Source: a virus. Taken from it: a stretch of 55,212 nucleotides of DNA. Under the pieces are notes generated by a model. It was not told where the DNA came from, ran no database searches, and saw nothing but the letters and a program-made list of their open reading frames with translations. The stretch is taken from IMG/VR virus record IMGVR_UViG_3300046507_000356, positions 1 to 55,212 of that record; one strand, given 5' to 3'. Both the position numbers and the translations under genes were made by a program. This document shows, piece after piece, positions 9,758 to 55,212 of the stretch (position 1 is the first letter of the stretch; the number at the start of each line of letters is the position of its first letter).

Positions 9758-10108
9758 TTATCCGTTCGGCGCAGGTTCGAAGTCGGCGCAGTAGTCGGCC
9801 CATCGGGAGTCCATCTTCCAAGATTCTCCGCTATCCAGAAGCACGCTCTCCAATGACACAACATATCGCTCGAAACCGCTGTAGCCGCCGTAGCTGTTTT
9901 TCGCGTTCACGAAGCCGCATACAGCCCCGTCCTTCCCGACGAACTCAGTGCGGAATTTTGCAGAGTCCGGGTCTTTGAGAATTTCTTTGACTCGCTCACG
10001 CGCTTGAGCGATCAGATCCGGCTTCACCGCCGGCGGTGACTTTTGCTTTGGCGCGGCAAAGGCGCTTGGAATGACAAGCAGAGCGGCGAAAGCTATAGCG
10101 GTCTTCAT
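9758..10108 (-). CDS. Secreted/periplasmic protein with signal peptide (116 aa)
   Basis: MKTAIAFAALLVIPSAFAAP...; GAGG RBS; start moved to 10108. Confidence 0.65.
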   Translation of the reverse strand: MKTAIAFAALLVIPSAFAAPKQKSPPAVKPDLIAQARERVKEILKDPDSAKFRTEFVGKDGAVCGFVNAKNSYGGYSGFERYVVSLESVLLDSGESWKMDSRWADYCADFEPAPNG

Positions 10109-10185: not shown

Positions 10186-10941
10186 TCACAGCCGCCCGGT
10201 CACAACTCGGCCCGGCTGATAGACGACGCGTCCGACAATGTCGCACTGCCCGCTACGCATGTTAATGGGTCCGAAATCCGGATTGAGCGAGTGGAGATAC
10301 CATTGGCCGCCCTGGTGAAGCAGTTGCTTCACGCACGCCTCGCCATCAAAGTTGACCGCATAGACCTCTCTACTGATTGGCCGCTTGTCTGCAGTGTTGA
10401 TGACTACGACGTCATCCTCGAAGAGCATAGGCTCCATGCTGCAGCCTGCAACTCGCATCGCGAGCAGCTGGGCCGGCGACAGGTTGTGCTTCTCGATCAC
10501 GGCGCGTGGCATCGGAAGAACCCCGCCATCTTCACGTTCCGGCTCCGTCTCGAAGCCGGCCACGCCAGCGTGCAACTTGAGTTTTACGAACCGGATCGGG
10601 ACTGTATCCGGTTCGTCGCCAACGCGGATCGGCCGAGCATCAGGGAAGAGCGATAGCGCCTTTGCGACGGCAGTGTGGTCAGTGGTGCCAGGCTGTTGGC
10701 TCTGCATAGCGCCGACCATCGATGCCGGTAACCCGACGCCGGTTACCTTCGCGATGGCCATGAGTTGCTTGAGGTTAGGACTGTGCCGCATCGTCTCCCA
10801 TCCAGAGATGTTCGCCTTCGTATAGCCGCGGTCGTCGCCCAGCTCGCGCGCAAGCTCAGCCCCAAGGCCTTCTTGCGATAGGCCCGCAGTCTTCCGTGCC
10901 TGACGGATCCAGTCCGCTAAAAGTTGTTTAAGATCATCCAT
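10186..10941 (-). CDS. CI/LexA-like repressor: N-terminal HTH plus C-terminal S24 peptidase domain (251 aa)
   Basis: HTH LSQEGLGAELA...; S24 motifs AGCSMEP (Ser) and ACVKQL (Lys). Confidence 0.85.
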   Translation of the reverse strand: MDDLKQLLADWIRQARKTAGLSQEGLGAELARELGDDRGYTKANISGWETMRHSPNLKQLMAIAKVTGVGLPASMVGAMQSQQPGTTDHTAVAKALSLFPDARPIRVGDEPDTVPIRFVKLKLHAGVAGFETEPEREDGGVLPMPRAVIEKHNLSPAQLLAMRVAGCSMEPMLFEDDVVVINTADKRPISREVYAVNFDGEACVKQLLHQGGQWYLHSLNPDFGPINMRSGQCDIVGRVVYQPGRVVTGRL

Positions 10942-10983: not shown

Positions 10984-11013
10984 TTGACCTTGCTCAACGA
11001 GCAAATCTATACT
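10984..11013 (+). promoter_or_regulatory. Rightward sigma70-like promoter TTGACC-18-TATACT
   Basis: -35 at 10984-10989, -10 at 11008-11013; the -10 is fused to the LexA box. Confidence 0.5.
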
Positions 11014-11029
11014 GTATGAACATACAGTG
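11010..11029. promoter_or_regulatory. LexA (SOS) box TACTGTATGAACATACAGTG
   Basis: CTGT-N8-ACAG (11012-11027), near-perfect palindrome. Confidence 0.75.
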
Positions 11030-11058
11030 TTTCAGGCGTACAATAGTAGATGAGGGGC

Positions 11059-11343
11059 CTAGCGTTTTCGGGTTGGGCCCAGGGCATCGATGATGGTTTG
11101 GACCATCTGCTGCGTTTTCTTCTGGTCGGCCCTGAGTTGCCGGTGTTCCTCGCGAAGACCTCGAATCTCGGCCAGGAGAGTTGCAAGAGAAGCGCCGCCA
11201 GACATGGCCGTACAGCGAAGGATGATTTCGTCATTCATCGAGTGATCCTCGCGATCGGCGGCTTCTTTGAGGTCGGCGTGCAGTTCGGCGGGGAGACGCA
11301 TCGCGGTCTTGATAGGGGGCTTCTTAGGCGGCTGTTCTTTCAT
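11059..11343 (-). CDS. Arc/MetJ-family ribbon-helix-helix DNA-binding protein with coiled-coil tail (94 aa)
   Basis: MRLPAELHADLKEAADREDHSMNDEIILR matches the Arc-domain pattern. Confidence 0.8.
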   Translation of the reverse strand: MKEQPPKKPPIKTAMRLPAELHADLKEAADREDHSMNDEIILRCTAMSGGASLATLLAEIRGLREEHRQLRADQKKTQQMVQTIIDALGPTRKR

Positions 11344-11530
11344 GCGCGCGATTCTTGCGCGTTTCGGAACAGAAATGTTGTGAGTGCCATACAAACGATG
11401 GCACTATTCTCGCACAAGCTGGACGAGAGACCGATTGTTACATTGATCCGCCCGCTATGTTTGTAGTGCTAGGCTAAGACTTTGTTACAGTATGCAGAAC
11501 AAATAGGCCGTGAAAGTCCCTCTGTTCTGT

Positions 11531-11554
11531 TGATGTAGGATGTATCCTACGTCA
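11531..11554. promoter_or_regulatory. 24-bp palindromic operator TGATGTAGGAT-GT-ATCCTACGTCA within candidate promoter TTGATG-17-CATAAA
   Basis: 11-bp arms with one mismatch; upstream of ORF 11582. Confidence 0.5.
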
Positions 11555-11581: not shown

Positions 11582-11785
11582 ATGAAGATGCCAGACGAGA
11601 CGATGCCGACATTGGTCATTGCGACCGAAAATGACAATGATGAGTTTCAGTTAACGAGCCAGGAGCGCCGGCTGTTGTCGAATTTCCGCTCGATGAAGCG
11701 CAGTGCGCAGTCCGTATTCATCGAAATGTCCGAGAACTTCAAGCGTACGATCCCGGCCGAGCCGGTCAAGCTCCGCTTACTCTGA
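11582..11785 (+). CDS. Hypothetical acidic small protein (67 aa); 3' end overlaps the convergent repressor gene by 9 nt
   Basis: ORF track; AAAGGAATGAAGATG context. Confidence 0.55.
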   Translation: MKMPDETMPTLVIATENDNDEFQLTSQERRLLSNFRSMKRSAQSVFIEMSENFKRTIPAEPVKLRLL

Positions 11786-12259
11786 ACGTCCGATAAGTGT
11801 GGCGTCGCTGTATTCCGCCGCAGCTTTGCAGGCGCCGTAGATCATCAACTGGCCCTCGTGGCTCGCTCGACGGTATAGTTCAAGGATTATCTTCTCTCGC
11901 GCATTGAGCCGTTCGAGAGTGGTTTCGGAGGGCAGGGACGCGTCCTCGAGATAGTCGGCATCGCGGCCAACCGCTTTGCTTCTCGGTGCATCAAGCGTTT
12001 TCCCATACGCCGCTATAGGCTCAGCAACTCCAACTGTGGTTGAGTCGACTTCCTTTGCTTCGCCTTGACCATTCGCCAGCCAGGCTGGATTGACATCAAG
12101 GGCCGCAGCAATGTCTACGATCCGGCGCGCGCTCGCCCGGATGCCTGATTCCAAATTCCCGATAGTGCTCTGCGTGACTCCGCTCAGCTTCGCAAGTGAA
12201 GCTTGGGTTAGCCCTTTCTGTTCTCGGGCCCAGATGAGTCGTTTTGCCAATGTATCCAT
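11777..12259 (-). CDS. XRE-family HTH repressor without a peptidase domain (160 aa from ATG 12259; alternative ATG 12277)
   Basis: LTQASLAKLSGVTQSTIGNLESG HTH; divergent from the cro-like gene across the operator pair. Confidence 0.8.
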   Translation of the reverse strand: MDTLAKRLIWAREQKGLTQASLAKLSGVTQSTIGNLESGIRASARRIVDIAAALDVNPAWLANGQGEAKEVDSTTVGVAEPIAAYGKTLDAPRSKAVGRDADYLEDASLPSETTLERLNAREKIILELYRRASHEGQLMIYGACKAAAEYSDATLIGRSE

Positions 12260-12283
12260 ATCACGAATGTAATACATAACACA

Positions 12284-27022: not shown

Positions 27023-27098
27023 GCGGGCGTAGCTCAGTTGGCAGAGCGCGATCCTTCCAAGTTCGATGGCGTCGGTTCGAGCCCGACCGCCCGCTCCA
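27023..27098 (+). tRNA. tRNA-Gly (anticodon UCC), 76 nt with encoded CCA
   Basis: Manual cloverleaf: acceptor GCGGGCG/CGCCCGC, D arm GCTC/GAGC, loop CT-TCC-AA, T arm GTCGG-TTCGAGC-CCGAC; one T:T mismatch in the anticodon stem. Confidence 0.8.
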
Positions 27099-28700: not shown

Positions 28701-29177
28701 ATGGCTTTAACAGGCAAAAAGCGAGCCTTCGCCGATGCCGTTTTGGCCGGGTTCTCGAATAAGGAAGCGGCGATTCGCGCCGGTTTCAGTGAAAAAACCG
28801 CATCGGCTGCCGGGTCGAGAAATGTTAAAGACCCGGATGTTAAAGCCTACCTCGAAAAGCACCGCGCGGCCGCCTCCGAACGCGCGGCGGCGCCGGCGAG
28901 ATCCGCATCGACATCGCCCCGGTCTGATGATGACCCAATTGATATTCCGGCAACTGCTGATCCGATCGAGTTCCTCACTACGATCATGAACGAGCCGGCG
29001 GCGGACCTTCGGTATCGGATCGATGCAGCCAAGGCCATGCTGCCGTTTAAACATCAAAGGCTGGGCGAGGGCGGCAAAAAGGACCAGAAGCAGGATGCGG
29101 CCAAGAAAGTGGGGGCCGGAAAATTTGCCGCGGCCGCGCCTCCAAAGCTTGTCGCCGCAGGCGGGAAGAAGGTTTAA
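28701..29177 (+). CDS. terS: Terminase small subunit
   Basis: N-terminus KKRAFADAVLAGFSNKEAAIRAGFSEKTA (TerS HTH type); GGAGGA RBS. Confidence 0.8.
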   Translation: MALTGKKRAFADAVLAGFSNKEAAIRAGFSEKTASAAGSRNVKDPDVKAYLEKHRAAASERAAAPARSASTSPRSDDDPIDIPATADPIEFLTTIMNEPAADLRYRIDAAKAMLPFKHQRLGEGGKKDQKQDAAKKVGAGKFAAAAPPKLVAAGGKKV

Positions 29178-50615: not shown

Positions 50616-51172
50616 TTTCCGCCTTACTTCTTCGCCTCGGCGTTCCGCGCTGGGTCGCGATCACGGCCCTGTGCATTCTTTCGGCCTGTGCCGCGCTGTG
50701 GTACCGCAGCCACCTTATCGACACTGGCATCGCCATGGAGTCGACCCGACGCGACGCGATCGACGTCGAGCGCGATCGGCAGGCGAGGGCAGAGCTCGAT
50801 GATGCCAACGCTCGTGTGCGCAATGCCCAAGCAAACCTCGACGGCGCCATTAACAGCATCGCCAAACTTCAATCGGAGCTCAACCATGAACAAGCCACTT
50901 CGGCTGCTCTGCAGTCTGACCTTGCTGCTGGCCGTCGTCGGCTGTCAGTCGCCATCTCCGGCACCTGCCGTCCTGCTCAAGCCGAACAAGCTCCAAGTCC
51001 CGGCGCTGCCGGCGTGGATCCGGGAGCCGCGGCTACAGCCGAACTTGACCCAGCGGCTGCCGCAGGTCTTGCTCGGCTCGTCGGAGAGGGAGACGCCGCG
51101 ATCGTCCGCCTCAACGCCTGCATCGCCGCCTACGCCGCCGTAGTCAAGGCGGTCGATATGGACTCACTGTAG
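50612..51172 (+). CDS. i-spanin (Rz-like)
   Basis: N-terminal TM, coiled-coil periplasmic domain; follows the endolysin. Confidence 0.75.
   Translation: MISALLLRLGVPRWVAITALCILSACAALWYRSHLIDTGIAMESTRRDAIDVERDRQARAELDDANARVRNAQANLDGAINSIAKLQSELNHEQATSAALQSDLAAGRRRLSVAISGTCRPAQAEQAPSPGAAGVDPGAAATAELDPAAAAGLARLVGEGDAAIVRLNACIAAYAAVVKAVDMDSL
50886..51143 (+). CDS. o-spanin (Rz1-like lipoprotein) embedded in the +1 frame of the i-spanin
   Basis: MNKPLRLLCSLTLLLAVVGC lipobox, Pro-rich mature part. Confidence 0.7.
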   Translation: MNKPLRLLCSLTLLLAVVGCQSPSPAPAVLLKPNKLQVPALPAWIREPRLQPNLTQRLPQVLLGSSERETPRSSASTPASPPTPP

Positions 51173-51333
51173 TGACGGCGCTGAATCGGGCTGTCGAGGA
51201 TCCGAAGCACAGTTTCCACCGGCAAGCCGTGGTCGAGTAAGACCACGGCGGCGCATTCCCGATAGCCAGGTTGGCAAAAGTTTAGTACCGCGTCGACATA
51301 CAGGGCGGTTAGTCGATCAGTTCTTCTTTCCAT
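51130..51333 (-). CDS. Hypothetical small protein (67 aa), divergent from the metallophosphoesterase gene
   Basis: ORF track; palindrome TTGACGAGCGTCAA (51367-51380) in the shared intergenic region. Confidence 0.4.
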   Translation of the reverse strand: MERRTDRLTALYVDAVLNFCQPGYRECAAVVLLDHGLPVETVLRILDSPIQRRHYSESISTALTTAA

Positions 51334-51427
51334 TCAGCAAATCTATCGCTACCGATACCCCATGTATTGACGAGCGTCAAGTTTAGTGACGGAAAGTAGT
51401 TGCACGAAGTTAAGTAGAAAGGCCAGT

Positions 51428-52624
51428 ATGACTAAGCAGAACATCATCGACCCGAAGCTGCTCGAGTTCGATCCAACGCCGCGCCAGATCGAATACGTCA
51501 ACGCAACGAATCGCTTGGGTAGCATGCGGGCGGCAGCGCGTGACCTGGGCGTAGCGAAAAGCTCGGTGCAAGAGGTGATCGCGCGCCTCAAGAATTCCGC
51601 CGCCGCGCGTGGGTACGCGCCTGGGCACTTCGAAAGCGGCGTGGCCCCGGGCTTCAGCATGGGCAAGGTCACCGTGCAGCGCGGGCCCGCCGGCGAGGTC
51701 GAGCGCACCTGGGAGCGCCAAAGTCCCGATCAGGATCGGCAGCAGGAGTTCATGCGCGCCGCGGCGGCGGCGATGTCCGAGGTGCTCCCCCGCGCCAAGC
51801 CAGTGAAGGGTCCGGCGGTCACCGACGCCAAGTTGGCCAGCGTGTACACCCTGACGGACGCACACGTAGGTGCAATGTGCTGGCACCGCGAGAATCTTGA
51901 CCCGAATGGGGATTGGGATCTGGCGATCGCTGAGCGCACGCTATCCGGATGCTTCGAGCACATGGTGAGAGCGAGCCCGCCGGCGCGTGTCGGCATCGTG
52001 GCGCAAATCGGTGATTTCTTGCACAGTGATGGCATGGGCATGATCGAGGGCAGAACGCCCACCTCGGGTCACGTTTTGGACCAGGACGGGCGATTCTCGA
52101 AAGTGGTCCAGACCGCAATCCGGATCCTGCGCCGCGTGGTGGGCTTTGCGCTGCAGAAGCACGAGCACGTTGTCGTCCTGATGGGCGAGGGCAACCACGA
52201 CCTCGCAAGCTCGGTCTGGCTGCGCGCGATGTTCAAGGCGCTGTACGAGAATGAGCCGCGCGTCGAAGTAATTGATTCGGAGTTGCCGTACTACGTCTAC
52301 CAGCACGGCCAGACTATGCTCGCGTGGCACCATGGGCACCTGAAGAAGAACGACCAGCTGCCGCTGCTGTTTGCAGCGCAGTTCCCGAAGGTCTGGGGCG
52401 CGACGACCAGGCGCTATGCGCATACCGGTCATCGGCATCACTTTGAAGAGAAAGAGCACTCTGGCATGTCGGTAGTGCAGCACTCGACCCTGGCGGCCCG
52501 GGATGCGTACGCGGCCCGCGGTGGATGGATGAGCGAGCGACAGTGCACGGCGATCACCTATCATGCCGACTTTGGTCAGGTCTGCCGCAATACGGTCACG
52601 CCGGAGATGTTGCAGGCCGCATAG
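51428..52624 (+). CDS. HTH domain fused to a calcineurin-like metallophosphoesterase (398 aa)
   Basis: N-terminus MRAAARDLGVAKSSVQEVIARL; motifs TDAHVG, IGDFLHSDG, GEGNHD, HHGH, GHRHH; GAAAGG RBS. Confidence 0.75.
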   Translation: MTKQNIIDPKLLEFDPTPRQIEYVNATNRLGSMRAAARDLGVAKSSVQEVIARLKNSAAARGYAPGHFESGVAPGFSMGKVTVQRGPAGEVERTWERQSPDQDRQQEFMRAAAAAMSEVLPRAKPVKGPAVTDAKLASVYTLTDAHVGAMCWHRENLDPNGDWDLAIAERTLSGCFEHMVRASPPARVGIVAQIGDFLHSDGMGMIEGRTPTSGHVLDQDGRFSKVVQTAIRILRRVVGFALQKHEHVVVLMGEGNHDLASSVWLRAMFKALYENEPRVEVIDSELPYYVYQHGQTMLAWHHGHLKKNDQLPLLFAAQFPKVWGATTRRYAHTGHRHHFEEKEHSGMSVVQHSTLAARDAYAARGGWMSERQCTAITYHADFGQVCRNTVTPEMLQAA

Positions 52625-53012: not shown

Positions 53013-53207
53013 TCAGTTTTCCGTCGTGCGAATCTCCAGTGCGATCTGCCGCCTAAACATTGGCAATGCCATCACCCGCGCGGCGACCTCTACCGGCACT
53101 TGGCTTGCGGCGAGAGTGCAGGACGCCTCAAGCCACCCGATGAGCGGCAAGAGGATTAGGGTAGCGTCGACCTTGGCGGCCGTGATGGGGTCCGTGCGTT
53201 CGATCAT
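53013..53207 (-). CDS. Doubtful small ORF (64 aa) divergent from the SOS-box gene
   Basis: TATTAT hexamer 6 nt upstream of the ATG, no SD. Confidence 0.3.
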   Translation of the reverse strand: MIERTDPITAAKVDATLILLPLIGWLEASCTLAASQVPVEVAARVMALPMFRRQIALEIRTTEN

Positions 53208-53235: not shown

Positions 53236-53265
53236 TTGCTGTTGAGCCCACGCAGGCTCTATACT
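53236..53265 (+). promoter_or_regulatory. Promoter TTGCTG-18-TATACT
   Basis: Same -10/LexA-box fusion as at 11008-11029. Confidence 0.5.
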
Positions 53266-53281
53266 GTACAAATGTACAGTA
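53262..53281. promoter_or_regulatory. LexA (SOS) box TACTGTACAAATGTACAGTA
   Basis: CTGT-N8-ACAG (53264-53279), near-perfect 20-bp palindrome that contains the ATG at 53272. Confidence 0.8.
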
Positions 53282-53562
53282 TCGTTAAAAGGCTGCGCGA
53301 GCGCGGCCGTCGCCTTCATAACCGCGAGATATCCGCGTTGCCCGGAGTGCGCGGAGAGATGGTTGTGGCGATATGCGGATTCGCACCGGAGGCGAAGATT
53401 TACGAGCCCAACGACCAGCAGCGGAGGCCGCTCATCCCCGAACTGCAAAACGTCCAGCTGCTCACGATGACGGCGACAGGTATGCTGCTGTATGGAACAG
53501 AGTGCGCGCAGGACGGCGCCGAATATGTTCAGGAATGGTCAGTTCGGATACTCCAGGAGTAG
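53272..53562 (+). CDS. LexA-box-controlled small protein (96 aa), candidate SOS-induced antirepressor
   Basis: ATG 6 nt after the -10 hexamer (possibly leaderless); alternative internal start at 53359. Confidence 0.5.
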   Translation: MYSIVKRLRERGRRLHNREISALPGVRGEMVVAICGFAPEAKIYEPNDQQRRPLIPELQNVQLLTMTATGMLLYGTECAQDGAEYVQEWSVRILQE

Positions 53563-53697
53563 CCAAATCCGTACTATTGGGAAAACCTATCGACCATGCA
53601 ATCAATGACTTACGAGCGCGATCCGTAAATTCAATAGTACAGTTCGCATTGCGTAAGCCATTGATGAAAAAGCAAAAAAGAGAGGTGGAGCACCTGC

Positions 53698-53742
53698 CTT
53701 CTAAGCTGAGGGTCGCTGGTTCGAACCCAGCTGGGCAGGCCA
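53698..53742 (+). other. attP core: 3' half of a tRNA-Arg(UCU)-like gene (anticodon loop to CCA)
   Basis: CTTCTAA loop, GCTGA, GGGTC, T arm GCTGG-TTCGAAC-CCAGC, acceptor TGGGCAG-G-CCA; no matching 5' half upstream; adjacent to int. Confidence 0.7.
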
Positions 53743-53813: not shown

Positions 53814-54866
53814 TTACCGAAGAGGCTTTACTTTCTCAGGCTTACGTCGGTAGACCCGATCCGTGATCTTGGAATCGGCGTGAGCGAGCAGCCTCTGTGC
53901 ATGTTCCAAAGTCTCCGCATCGCTAGCCGACTTGGCGCGGATATCATGCTCGGTGAACCGCTCCTTGACTGCCGTTTCCTTTAGCACGCGATCCATGAAC
54001 CGCTGCCACATGGAATTCCAGCCGCTGGCGGTATCTTTCGCATCGTCGAAGTAGCACTCTCCACGCCGATTGCAGAACAGGTACTTGCCGATGTCGATCG
54101 GACGAGCCTCCTTTGCCATCTTGACCGCAGCCTCCAGGGCAGGGGACCACTCGATGATGATCCTCTTGCCGGTCGTGTGCGCCGTCTTGCGCGGTAGGAC
54201 GTGTATGCCGTCCTCTCGTAATGCGTCCATCGTCAAGCGCAGCAAGTCGCCGCGGCGCAGGCCGGTCAACAGCTTCATGCGGATATACGCCTGAATCATC
54301 AGAACGCTGCCGGCCTTGCGCTTTGATTCGAGTTTCAGACATTCCTCCAGCTCCCAATCTTCGATGTACCGGGTGCGCGGCGGCTCGCCCTGCAGCCTGA
54401 CCTCTCCCTTGAACGGGTGGCGATCGATCAATCCCCACTCAACCGCCTTTGTGTAGACATGGGAGAAAACGCGGATCTCACGTCGGCCTTGCGTTCTCGA
54501 CACGGACTTTGCCGCGTACTGGTAAATTAGCTGCGGGCGAATGGCCGATATCGACAGGCCTCCGAAAACCGCGCGAAGACGCAAGATGGCTCGTCGATGC
54601 TCGACTTGCGTAAGCGGCGCCTTGCCCGGGATTACCTCGCGCCCGTAACGGTCCAGGAGATCGCCTATCGTCCTGGCGTCGCCGAACGATCCGATGCGAT
54701 CGGCCCAGACCTTGTAGGCCTCATCTAGCGTATCCCCGAGACGGAATGTAGTCTTGCCGTCCCAGCTTGCCTTTTGGTCCTGCGGCACTTGGTAGTAGTA
54801 CACGCCACGGACAATCCGCCACCGAGGCGGAAGGCCGGCCAACTCATCGCTTCTTGCCTTGCCCAT
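53814..54866 (-). CDS. int: Tyrosine integrase
   Basis: LTGLRRGDLL (Arg), HDIRAK (H-x-x-R), LLAHADSKITDRVY (His/Tyr). Confidence 0.9.
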   Translation of the reverse strand: MGKARSDELAGLPPRWRIVRGVYYYQVPQDQKASWDGKTTFRLGDTLDEAYKVWADRIGSFGDARTIGDLLDRYGREVIPGKAPLTQVEHRRAILRLRAVFGGLSISAIRPQLIYQYAAKSVSRTQGRREIRVFSHVYTKAVEWGLIDRHPFKGEVRLQGEPPRTRYIEDWELEECLKLESKRKAGSVLMIQAYIRMKLLTGLRRGDLLRLTMDALREDGIHVLPRKTAHTTGKRIIIEWSPALEAAVKMAKEARPIDIGKYLFCNRRGECYFDDAKDTASGWNSMWQRFMDRVLKETAVKERFTEHDIRAKSASDAETLEHAQRLLAHADSKITDRVYRRKPEKVKPLR

Positions 54867-55083
54867 TCAATGCACCCCAGTTTGGTTCAGGTTCTTTCTT
54901 CGCCGGCGCGGCGACATGGCCGCCCAGCAGCTTCTCGACGTGGGACCGCAGTACGACCAGCGTGCCGTTCGGCCGGACCTTGTGTGCGACTCCCAGCGCA
55001 TTAAGGATCTTGCGCTGCGTCGAGTGACGCTTTTTCTCAGTCAGCTGTGCGATTTCTTCATCGCTCAAGAATACGGCTGCCAT
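54844..55083 (-). CDS. DUF4224-type excisionase-like small DNA-binding protein
   Basis: FLSDEEIAQLTEKKRHSTQRKILNALGV... pattern; overlaps the int start. Confidence 0.7.
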   Translation of the reverse strand: MAAVFLSDEEIAQLTEKKRHSTQRKILNALGVAHKVRPNGTLVVLRSHVEKLLGGHVAAPAKKEPEPNWGALNGQGKKR

Positions 55084-55084
55084 C

Positions 55085-55212
55085 TCAATCTCCCTTCACT
55101 TCATCCAGAACCGAGCACCGCGGTAGTACTACGACGCTCTGGATCCGATCTACTTCCACCTCGCCCAGGCCCGCGATCTCGGCCGATCGCACTATGGCTT
55201 CCATCGACCTGG
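55085..55212 (-). CDS. 3' end (duplicate copy) of the junction-spanning gene listed at 1..239
   Basis: Stop TGA at 55087-55085, 1 nt before the ATG of the DUF4224-like gene. Confidence 0.55.
   Translation of the reverse strand, partial: RSMEAIVRSAEIAGLGEVEVDRIQSVVVLPRCSVLDEVKGD
55086..55212. repeat. Terminal overlap copy 2 (identical to 1..127)
   Basis: Direct comparison; the length fits a k-mer-sized circular-assembly overlap (inference). Confidence 0.95.

Follow-up and report, generated by a model that had tools for sequence, protein, structure and literature searches.

A predicted LexA operator overlaps the start codon of a small phage gene

We analyzed a stretch of viral DNA of 55,212 nucleotides (IMG/VR record IMGVR_UViG_3300046507_000356, positions 1 to 55,212; referred to as the window), and focused on a gene for a 96-amino-acid (aa) protein whose start codon lies within a predicted LexA (SOS) box. 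The first and last 127 bases of the window are identical (1-127 = 55086-55212), and we therefore take it to be a complete, circularly assembled phage genome of approximately 55,085 bp. An original prediction, made from the sequence, had described a LexA-repressed, leaderless promoter at this site and had proposed that the gene encodes an SOS-induced antirepressor. Upon re-reading, all positions given there for the promoter hexamers, the box, the start codon and the 96-aa open reading frame (ORF) proved exact, and the elements of the locus are as follows.

53236-53241, + strand: TTGCTG, a weak -35-like hexamer identified by direct reading, with an 18-nt spacer to the -10 hexamer
53260-53265, + strand: -10 hexamer TATACT, whose last four bases are the first four of the LexA box and which ends 6 nt before the ATG
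53262-53281, no strand assigned: predicted LexA (SOS) box TACTGTACAAATGTACAGTA, a perfect palindrome with a 12/12 match to TACTGT-N8-ACAGTA
53272-53562, + strand: the 96-aa gene (ATG at 53272, TAG at 53560-53562), a member of PHROG 5560

The LexA box begins within the -10 hexamer, whose 3' part it covers, and runs across the predicted transcription start and through codons 1 to 3 of the gene (ATG TAC AGT, encoding Met-Tyr-Ser). With this fusion of operator and start codon, a single sequence would act as promoter element, repressor site and coding sequence. Given that the -10 hexamer ends 6 nt before the ATG and that the intervening GTACAA contains no Shine-Dalgarno sequence, a leaderless mRNA is the natural reading of the layout. 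The cI gene of phage lambda, when expressed from PRM, also has a leaderless mRNA, with transcription starting at the A of the ATG and no Shine-Dalgarno sequence. The 96-aa gene resembles this case in its predicted start at the ATG, but differs in that the operator encodes codons 1 to 3, and the leaderless status is here read from the spacing. The -35-like hexamer matches TTGACA at only 3/6 positions and is not conserved among homologous loci, and a consensus promoter scanner did not list the promoter of the 96-aa gene.

It could be argued that the palindrome arose by chance or is a relic, and that the ORF is not SOS-regulated in vivo. The poor -35 and the decayed CTGG half-site found in some relatives would fit such a reading, and the 16-nt core (CTGT-N8-ACAG) is not significant in the window by itself, with 2 occurrences compared to 0.5 expected and at least 2 in 11 of 100 shuffles. 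However, when the full 20-mer (TACTGT-N8-ACAGTA) was considered with up to 1 mismatch, the same 2 sites were found compared to 0.02 expected in the window, and none of 100 shuffles reached 2. This approximately 100-fold excess over chance, together with the 12/12 consensus match, supports the identification of the site at 53262-53281 as a LexA palindrome. The block in which -10 and box are fused, TATACTGTA, was found again at 11008-11016, as claimed previously.

The operator is conserved across prophage lineages

The strongest evidence for the operator comes from its conservation. The loci compared are designated below by L numbers. Among 70 homologous loci from IMG/VR, 23 carry a perfect box at position -8, with the ATG inside it, 5 carry a box there with one mismatch (CTGG), and 8 have a perfect box at -31 to -34, against a background of only 16 other perfect boxes in the 939 kb of these loci. 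When 25 non-identical homologous upstream regions were compared, TATACTGT-N4-ATGTACAG was the only invariant block, and everything 5' of the -10 hexamer was variable. Outside IMG/VR, a perfect box in the same position was found in two Telluria metagenome-assembled genomes (MAGs; L008 and L011), Massilia sp. Leaf139 (L005) and a contig of a MAG assigned to Xanthobacteraceae by its label (L004). In two other loci, L014 from a MAG of Massilia and L003 from a metagenome, the perfect box lies 33 nt upstream instead. The same fusion of box, -10 and ATG was also seen for a Janthinobacterium prophage protein 31% identical to the window protein, and for one metagenomic relative. In about ten further lineages, LexA-type palindromes lie at -17, -21, -23, -24, -27, -44 or -77, and several of these carry CTGG/CCAG half-sites with the CTG-N10-CAG core kept. 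A half-site of this CTGG/CCAG type is also known from the LexA site of E. coli dinB. An operator and -10 that stay unchanged across 25 distinct loci while their flanks vary, and boxes that recur independently at other offsets, speak strongly against chance or a relic, and we consider the probability of that explanation to be next to negligible.

By sequence, the site has the features by which members of the LexA regulon of Beta- and Gammaproteobacteria are recognized, i.e., a consensus palindrome, overlap with the promoter, and conservation upstream of orthologues elsewhere. Moreover, the 6-nt spacing between -10 and ATG is common to boxed members (TATACT), box-less members (TACACT) and distant members of 70% GC (TAGCAT). 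We conclude from these comparisons that LexA control and the leaderless layout are probably ancient, selected properties of the family. The comparative evidence strongly supports what had been predicted for this promoter, namely LexA repression, fusion of the box to the -10, an ATG inside the box and a leaderless mRNA, and the 96-aa gene is very probably a real LexA-controlled gene.

About 30 of the 70 prophage copies, on the other hand, have no LexA box and carry a constitutive-looking extended -10 (gTGcTACACT) in its place. Approximately 28 of the box-less loci (e.g., L054 9963-9994, L076 and L083) share the motif GCTCAAC(A/G)GTGCTACACT-N6-ATG. In the loci examined, GTGCTACACT was reused almost nowhere else, and no tie to phage operators was obtained. 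Distant members of 64 to 70% GC (L209-L211, L216-L219, L221 and L222; upstream 60 nt) have TTATCCCCAATC, followed by about 30 variable nucleotides and then TAGCAT-N6-ATG; the leaderless spacing is kept in these loci while the conserved upstream element, TTATCCCCAATC, is a different one.

The box also seems to leave its mark on the protein. Wherever it overlaps the ATG, the N-terminus is Met-Tyr-Ser (ATG TAC AGy), with Met-His-Ser in one locus. Where it does not, the proteins mostly start with MYG, MLA, MQV and the like, and MYS is kept in 3 of about 30 box-less loci. Since MYS tracks the overlap of box and ATG, the operator half-site appears to dictate the first codons.

The closest NCBI genome match, L004 (JANINJ010000013.1), belongs to a MAG labelled Xanthobacteraceae (Alphaproteobacteria), yet has a LexA box of the Beta/Gamma type. 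All other genome matches are from Oxalobacteraceae or Burkholderiaceae, and the L004 contig may be mis-binned.

The 96-aa protein belongs to a sizeable, unannotated family

The 96-aa ORF is a real gene. Its GC contents at the three codon positions (0.65/0.40/0.71) resemble those of the integrase and other known genes of the window, and 40 database homologues of 96 to 99 aa share its initial Met and align with it from end to end. When 1.84 billion cluster representatives were searched with a family profile, 262 clusters (50% identity) were retrieved at E≤0.001, nearly all of them stand-alone proteins of 95 to 120 aa. A metagenome scan with a narrow alignment of the family yielded mainly short contigs. 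The sole library match was to PHROG 5560 (function not known; E 1.5e-6), with residues 9-92 aligned to positions 2-88 of the 90-position profile. There was no match in Pfam (including DinI), NCBIfam or PADLOC, and thus none to a known defence or toxin family, and a profile search against PDB sequences gave noise only (E 0.5 to 1). With tblastn, the window protein had no match at E≤0.01 in 50,697 GenBank phage records and none in PLSDB plasmids; likewise, neither P0058 against the phages nor P0200 against the plasmids gave a match, and no member of the family was found in PLSDB. Literature searches returned no description of the 96-aa family.

The N-terminus of the protein is basic (VKRLRERGRRL), and a YVQEWS motif is present at the C-terminus. 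An AlphaFold2 model built from a 38-sequence alignment was of high quality (predicted local distance difference test score, pLDDT, 93.6; predicted template modelling score, pTM, 0.83) and consists of seven β-strands and one short helix. When the model was compared with PDB and BFVD using Foldseek, no match below E 0.04 was obtained (significance cut, E<0.001).

Distant members are found beside SRAP, RadC and SNase genes

Members of the family also occur beyond the prophage clade to which the window belongs. One is the gene pAN_24 of the Pseudomonas phage vB_PstS-pAN (hhalign 96.6%, E 5e-10), which begins 2 nt after the stop codon of a SRAP/YedK gene (PF02586, E 1.6e-48), in one operon located between attP/int and the lysis genes (L190 4297-5315); this SRAP operon is kept in ten related viral contigs. 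In L199 (424-1479) and L200/201 (L200 5177-6231), SRAP is instead divergent from the family gene, with a LexA-like palindrome, TACTGGATATTATTCCAGT, between the two and with AP2 and SNase genes downstream; these contigs carry TraG_N, or KfrA_N and resolvase genes. L220 represents a third, more distant case of divergence from SRAP across a LexA-like palindrome, with an SNase-like sequence downstream, and in L193 SRAP fragments lie 3 to 4 kb from the family gene. One further member sits after RadC and before DUF736/DUF932 genes. Others are apparently placed among ordinary chromosomal genes, the neighbours having been judged partly by eye from ORF translations, without family assignment; in one such apparently chromosomal locus (L205), a perfect box abuts the ATG. 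For the subfamily with a QEWRCE motif, no relative was found in 2.9 million viral contigs.

The passages on SRAP in PMC3765255 describe it as an SOS-associated family that is linked to SOS operons; the 96-aa family is not mentioned as a SRAP partner in those passages. The neighbourhoods of these distant members suggest a role in DNA-damage physiology.

A proposed model for the 96-aa gene as an SOS-regulon cargo gene

Based on these comparisons, we interpret the locus as what appears to be a genuine SOS-regulon cargo gene, located at the attachment site-proximal end of a temperate phage with a host of the Burkholderiales type. In undamaged cells, a dimer of the host LexA would sit on the 20-bp operator, and since this covers the 3' part of the -10, the start and the first three codons, RNA polymerase would be excluded. 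DNA damage would activate RecA and lead to self-cleavage of LexA, upon which transcription would begin at, or immediately beside, the A of the ATG. This would give an mRNA without leader or Shine-Dalgarno sequence, to be translated directly into the basic, all-β protein of 96 aa. The predicted operator, its position and its deep conservation are established by the comparison of loci; that LexA binds there, where transcription starts and that the mRNA is translated without a leader are inferred.

As to what the protein does, we lean, with an even chance of being right, toward a general accessory of the SOS response that acts on host DNA-damage physiology and is not the trigger of prophage induction. 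The neighbouring genes and the distribution of the family are the sole basis from which we infer this accessory step. The protein might target RecA/LexA signalling, damaged single-stranded DNA or lesion processing of the SRAP/YedK type, and it probably does not act on the phage repressor. A more specific version is tentative and clearly less probable: the family would be an SOS-response effector that mobile elements carry under LexA control, working with SRAP/YedK abasic-site sensors or modulating RecA/LexA, i.e., a structurally new analogue of DinI/PsiB whose operator, placed in the start codon, dictates Met-Tyr-Ser. The likeness to DinI and PsiB is one of niche only, in that all are proteins of about 80 to 140 aa, linked to DNA damage and spread over chromosomes, prophages and conjugative elements. 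DinI is LexA-controlled. The 96-aa protein differs from DinI in lacking a match to the Pfam DinI family and in its predicted all-β fold, compared to the α/β fold of DinI. DinI homologues are present in LexA operons of prophages (PMC3121763). As for SRAP/YedK, no fewer than three lineages of distinct sequence have the family gene in an operon with SRAP or divergent from it, and LexA-like boxes separate the two genes where they diverge; unlike in those cases, the window phage has no SRAP gene, and the linkage concerns distant members.

Several observations weigh against an accessory role in the SOS response. The fold gives no functional clue, as the top structural matches in PDB were RanBD (PH-like) chains with weak scores (template modelling score 0.47 to 0.53, E 0.04 to 0.05). 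Because of the box-less prophage copies, SOS control cannot be obligatory for the family. No SRAP gene was found in the window or in its close prophage relatives. The members in SRAP, RadC and chromosomal contexts share only 25 to 35% identity with the window protein, and the role in the prophage clade could be another one, specific to phages. Lastly, the operator-linked CI repressor of this phage has no S24 cleavage domain, and this genome therefore still requires some relay from SOS to CI.

Accessory genes under LexA control are already known from mobile elements; of note here are the size of the unannotated family, the association with SRAP and an operator that takes in the start codon. Should the regulation prove real, a sizeable uncharacterized family (262 clusters, mostly prophage-borne) joins the SOS regulon of Burkholderiales and related bacteria, and its repeated pairing with SRAP/YedK provides a lead to a partner that the DNA-protein-crosslink pathway of SRAP/YedK may have in bacteria.

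The 96-aa protein is an improbable antirepressor

The original prediction had reasoned that an SOS-induced antirepressor would offer a route of induction for a phage whose repressor cannot be cleaved. In that case, the 96-aa protein would bind the CI of 160/166 aa, which is non-cleavable, and inactivate it, in the manner of Tum in coliphage 186 or of GfoA/GfhA in the Gifsy phages. The relevant genes of the repressor region are listed below.

9758-10108, - strand: lipoprotein-like gene, with a homologue in the CI module of the L164 phage
10186-10941, - strand: 251-aa protein with HTH_3 and Peptidase_S24 domains (LexA/CI-type, self-cleaving; S24 E 1.8e-21)
11010-11029, no strand assigned: the other LexA box TACTGTATGAACATACAGTG, fused likewise to a TATACT at 11008-11013 (+ strand promoter; -35 TTGACC at 10984-10989)
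11059-11343, - strand: Arc-like gene, its coding strand assigned by an excess of substitutions at third codon positions
11582-11785, + strand: 67-aa ORF with a GC content at third codon positions (GC3) of 0.77, downstream of the promoter with the 11010-11029 box and convergent with cI
11777-12277, - strand: operator-linked CI (160/166 aa) with a helix-turn-helix (HTH) and without S24, divergent from Cro-like and 186-type CII genes

The premise of a repressor without S24 held for the operator-linked CI, which has the HTH only; it did not hold for the genome as a whole, as the 251-aa protein combines an HTH with Peptidase_S24. The 251-aa protein is homologous to the canonical CI of L164, and this genome thus has two repressor-type modules, one cleavable (the 251-aa protein, with the lipoprotein-like gene) and one not (the 160/166-aa CI).

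There are clear parallels to known antirepressors. In the Gifsy phages and in 186, small LexA-controlled antirepressors are encoded outside the immunity region (PMC3121763), as is the 96-aa gene, which is small and LexA-boxed as well. In 186, the -10 of the p95 promoter (29044-29049) lies in the LexA site (29044-29063), and the operator overlaps the -10 in both phages; the CI of 186 is also without S24, and the window phage shares with it a CII of the 186 type (PF06892). The Gifsy genes GfoA/GfhA/GftA are under direct LexA control, and the Gifsy repressors are non-cleavable. The differences are equally evident. Tum has 146 aa and a DinI-like second half (PMC3121763), in contrast to the predicted all-β protein of 96 aa, and is translated from an mRNA with a leader, whereas the operator contains the start codon in the window. 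In line with the earlier statement that the protein resembles no recognized antirepressor, hhalign of the family profile against Tum gave a probability of 0.14%, i.e., no sequence relation, and the tblastn search of the GenBank phage records described above had no match. That search revealed no similarity to the Gifsy antirepressors either, the sequences not having been compared protein to protein. Furthermore, each Gifsy gene stands behind a dinI homologue within the same operon, while the 96-aa gene is predicted to be monocistronic and leaderless. Antirepressor activity has been shown for Tum, and for the 96-aa protein it is disfavoured by the comparisons that follow.

First, in the phage IMGVR 3300031134_000652, a boxed family gene (L045) coexists with a canonical Phage_CI_repr plus S24 CI (L164), from which Cro (YdaS-type) and CII genes diverge; the gene hence occurs where no antirepressor would be required. 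Family genes have S24-type proteins for company in other contigs as well, in L046/L159 and L035/L177 (box-less) and in L017/L146, L020/L149 and L025/L147 (boxed), and the window itself encodes one. Second, unlike the Gifsy antirepressors, the family occurs outside phages and alongside S24-type repressors, and those members, some of them LexA-boxed, are repeatedly found beside SRAP. Third, the prophage copies with an extended -10 promoter in place of the box would not be expected of an SOS-induced antirepressor. The Gifsy-type gene FsoA of Fels-1 offers a parallel to both the box-less copies and the co-occurrence with S24-type CI, in that this homologue is not controlled by LexA and the CI of its phage is cleavable (PMC3121763). 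Fourth, in L025/L147 the cI allele has been swapped, yet the 96-aa protein is 77% identical, similar to the integrase (76%) and the S24 protein (81%), while the cI-adjacent 67-aa ORF behind the other LexA box falls to 42% where cI is swapped. Thus, the 96-aa protein follows the phage backbone and not the immunity allele, and shows no behaviour of a CI-specific partner. Taken together, S24 co-occurrence, non-phage and SRAP contexts, box-less copies and independence of the cI allele make it improbable that the 96-aa gene is the antirepressor or the route of induction. The case also suggests caution, in that a LexA box on a small gene and a CI without a cleavage domain are insufficient to call an antirepressor.

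The other LexA box lies upstream of a better-placed candidate

The promoter at the 11010-11029 box is strong (TTGACC-18-TATACT), lies between the S24 and Arc-like genes and is conserved in 7 related phages. The substitution pattern places the Arc-like gene on the minus strand, and the promoter would accordingly read antisense through it. We also considered a 138-aa ORF on the plus strand (11050-11466) as coding, and rejected it, since third-position substitutions favour the minus-strand Arc-like gene.

About 570 nt downstream of this promoter lies the 67-aa ORF. It is 76 to 78% identical in relatives where cI is about 80% identical and 42 to 52% where the cI allele differs, while Arc remains at 69 to 84%. 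As its identity co-varies with the cI allele, the 67-aa ORF belongs to the immunity cassette. On these grounds, it is a better-placed candidate for an antirepressor (or an immI-like module) than the 96-aa gene, and a relay to CI in this genome would more plausibly run from the 11010-11029 promoter toward the 67-aa ORF. A likeness of the 67-aa ORF to a C-terminal segment of CI (L..EKR.L..YR) was not supported by BLASTP, which gave E 0.074 for one of two pairs and no match for the second. Two conserved operator-like palindromes were noted between the Arc-like gene and the 67-aa ORF, AGTGCCAT-N7-ATGGCACT (11383-11405) and GTAGGATGTATCCTAC (11535-11550).

Neighbourhood of the 96-aa gene in prophages

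The genes and elements around the 96-aa gene, and one tRNA gene elsewhere in the window, are as follows.

51130-51333, - strand: 67-aa small helical ORF, a paralogue of the 53013-53207 ORF and divergent from the 412-aa gene
51386-52624, + strand: 412-aa gene, HTH and phosphoesterase-like, with the body of PHROG 704 'DNA repair exonuclease'
53013-53207, - strand: divergent 64-aa helical ORF, its start 65 nt from the ATG of the 96-aa gene (GC3 0.77)
~53683-53742, + strand: segment resembling the 3' part of a tRNA, probable core of the phage attachment site (attP), with the T-arm GCTGG/TTCGAAC/CCAGC, the acceptor strand and GCCA (direct reading)
53814-54866, - strand: tyrosine integrase of 350 aa (Phage_integrase E 5e-8), convergent with the 96-aa gene across attP
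54844-55083, - strand: DUF4224 protein of 79 aa (E 1.8e-16), overlapping the start of int and likely an excision or accessory factor
27023-27098, + strand: complete tRNA-Gly (TCC) gene, inside the phage genome

The tRNA-like segment, for which ARAGORN made no tRNA call, lies 120 nt downstream of the 96-aa gene and is followed by int and then the DUF4224 gene on the opposite strand, and from this direct reading the proposed location of the gene beside attP is reasonable. In relatives, the usual position of the gene is likewise after the lysis cassette at the attachment site-proximal prophage end, often 0.3 to 4 kb from the predicted provirus end, and several integrated relatives have a host tRNA gene 0.3 to 2.6 kb downstream.

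Given that the gene adjoins the attP-like segment, is convergent with int and encodes a very basic N-terminus, it might be an SOS-controlled recombination directionality or excision factor acting at attP. We find this highly improbable, as the place where an excisionase gene is usually found is already taken by the DUF4224 gene that overlaps int, and the predicted all-β fold is unlike that of winged-helix excisionases. Moreover, the family accompanies unrelated integrases with different tRNA targets and also occurs without an integrase nearby.

The location between lysis genes and the attachment site is at the same time the classical site of a moron, and the 96-aa gene could then be a toxin-like moron, i.e., an SOS-triggered effector of growth, cell division or abortive infection, with the divergent 64-aa protein as its regulator or antidote. 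Using tblastn, relatives of the 64-aa ORF were found in about 35 related loci, mostly about 65 nt upstream and on the opposite strand, with or without the box, so the divergent pair shares a 65-nt control region in these loci. The paralogous small ORF is paired in the same manner with the 412-aa phosphoesterase-like gene, and tight repression together with a leaderless mRNA would suit a harmful product. However, no PADLOC defence model or toxin family was matched, no 64-aa partner accompanies the members from Janthinobacterium, those linked to SRAP or those in chromosomal contexts, and the box-less copies look constitutively expressed. The model of the 64-aa protein is helical and without a recognizable DNA-binding fold; there was no Pfam, PDB-sequence or structural match, and a DNA-binding role could not be shown. 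We therefore regard a toxin-like moron as unlikely, and retain the accessory role in host DNA-damage physiology as the preferred reading.

The small helical ORFs form a family of 92 clusters, all hypothetical, from Massilia, Telluria and metagenomes. In the window, each of two paralogues (67 aa and 64 aa) forms a divergent pair with a cargo gene, and L075 has three copies. The 412-aa gene, which has an N-terminal HTH-like segment, is kept beside the family gene in 24 loci. In L030 (8768-9984) and L042 (7951-9073), a perfect LexA box directly follows the 412-aa homologue and precedes a gene for an HNH endonuclease of 344 to 375 aa. With this box-HNH pair also present there, the variable region seems to collect several LexA-boxed cargo genes.

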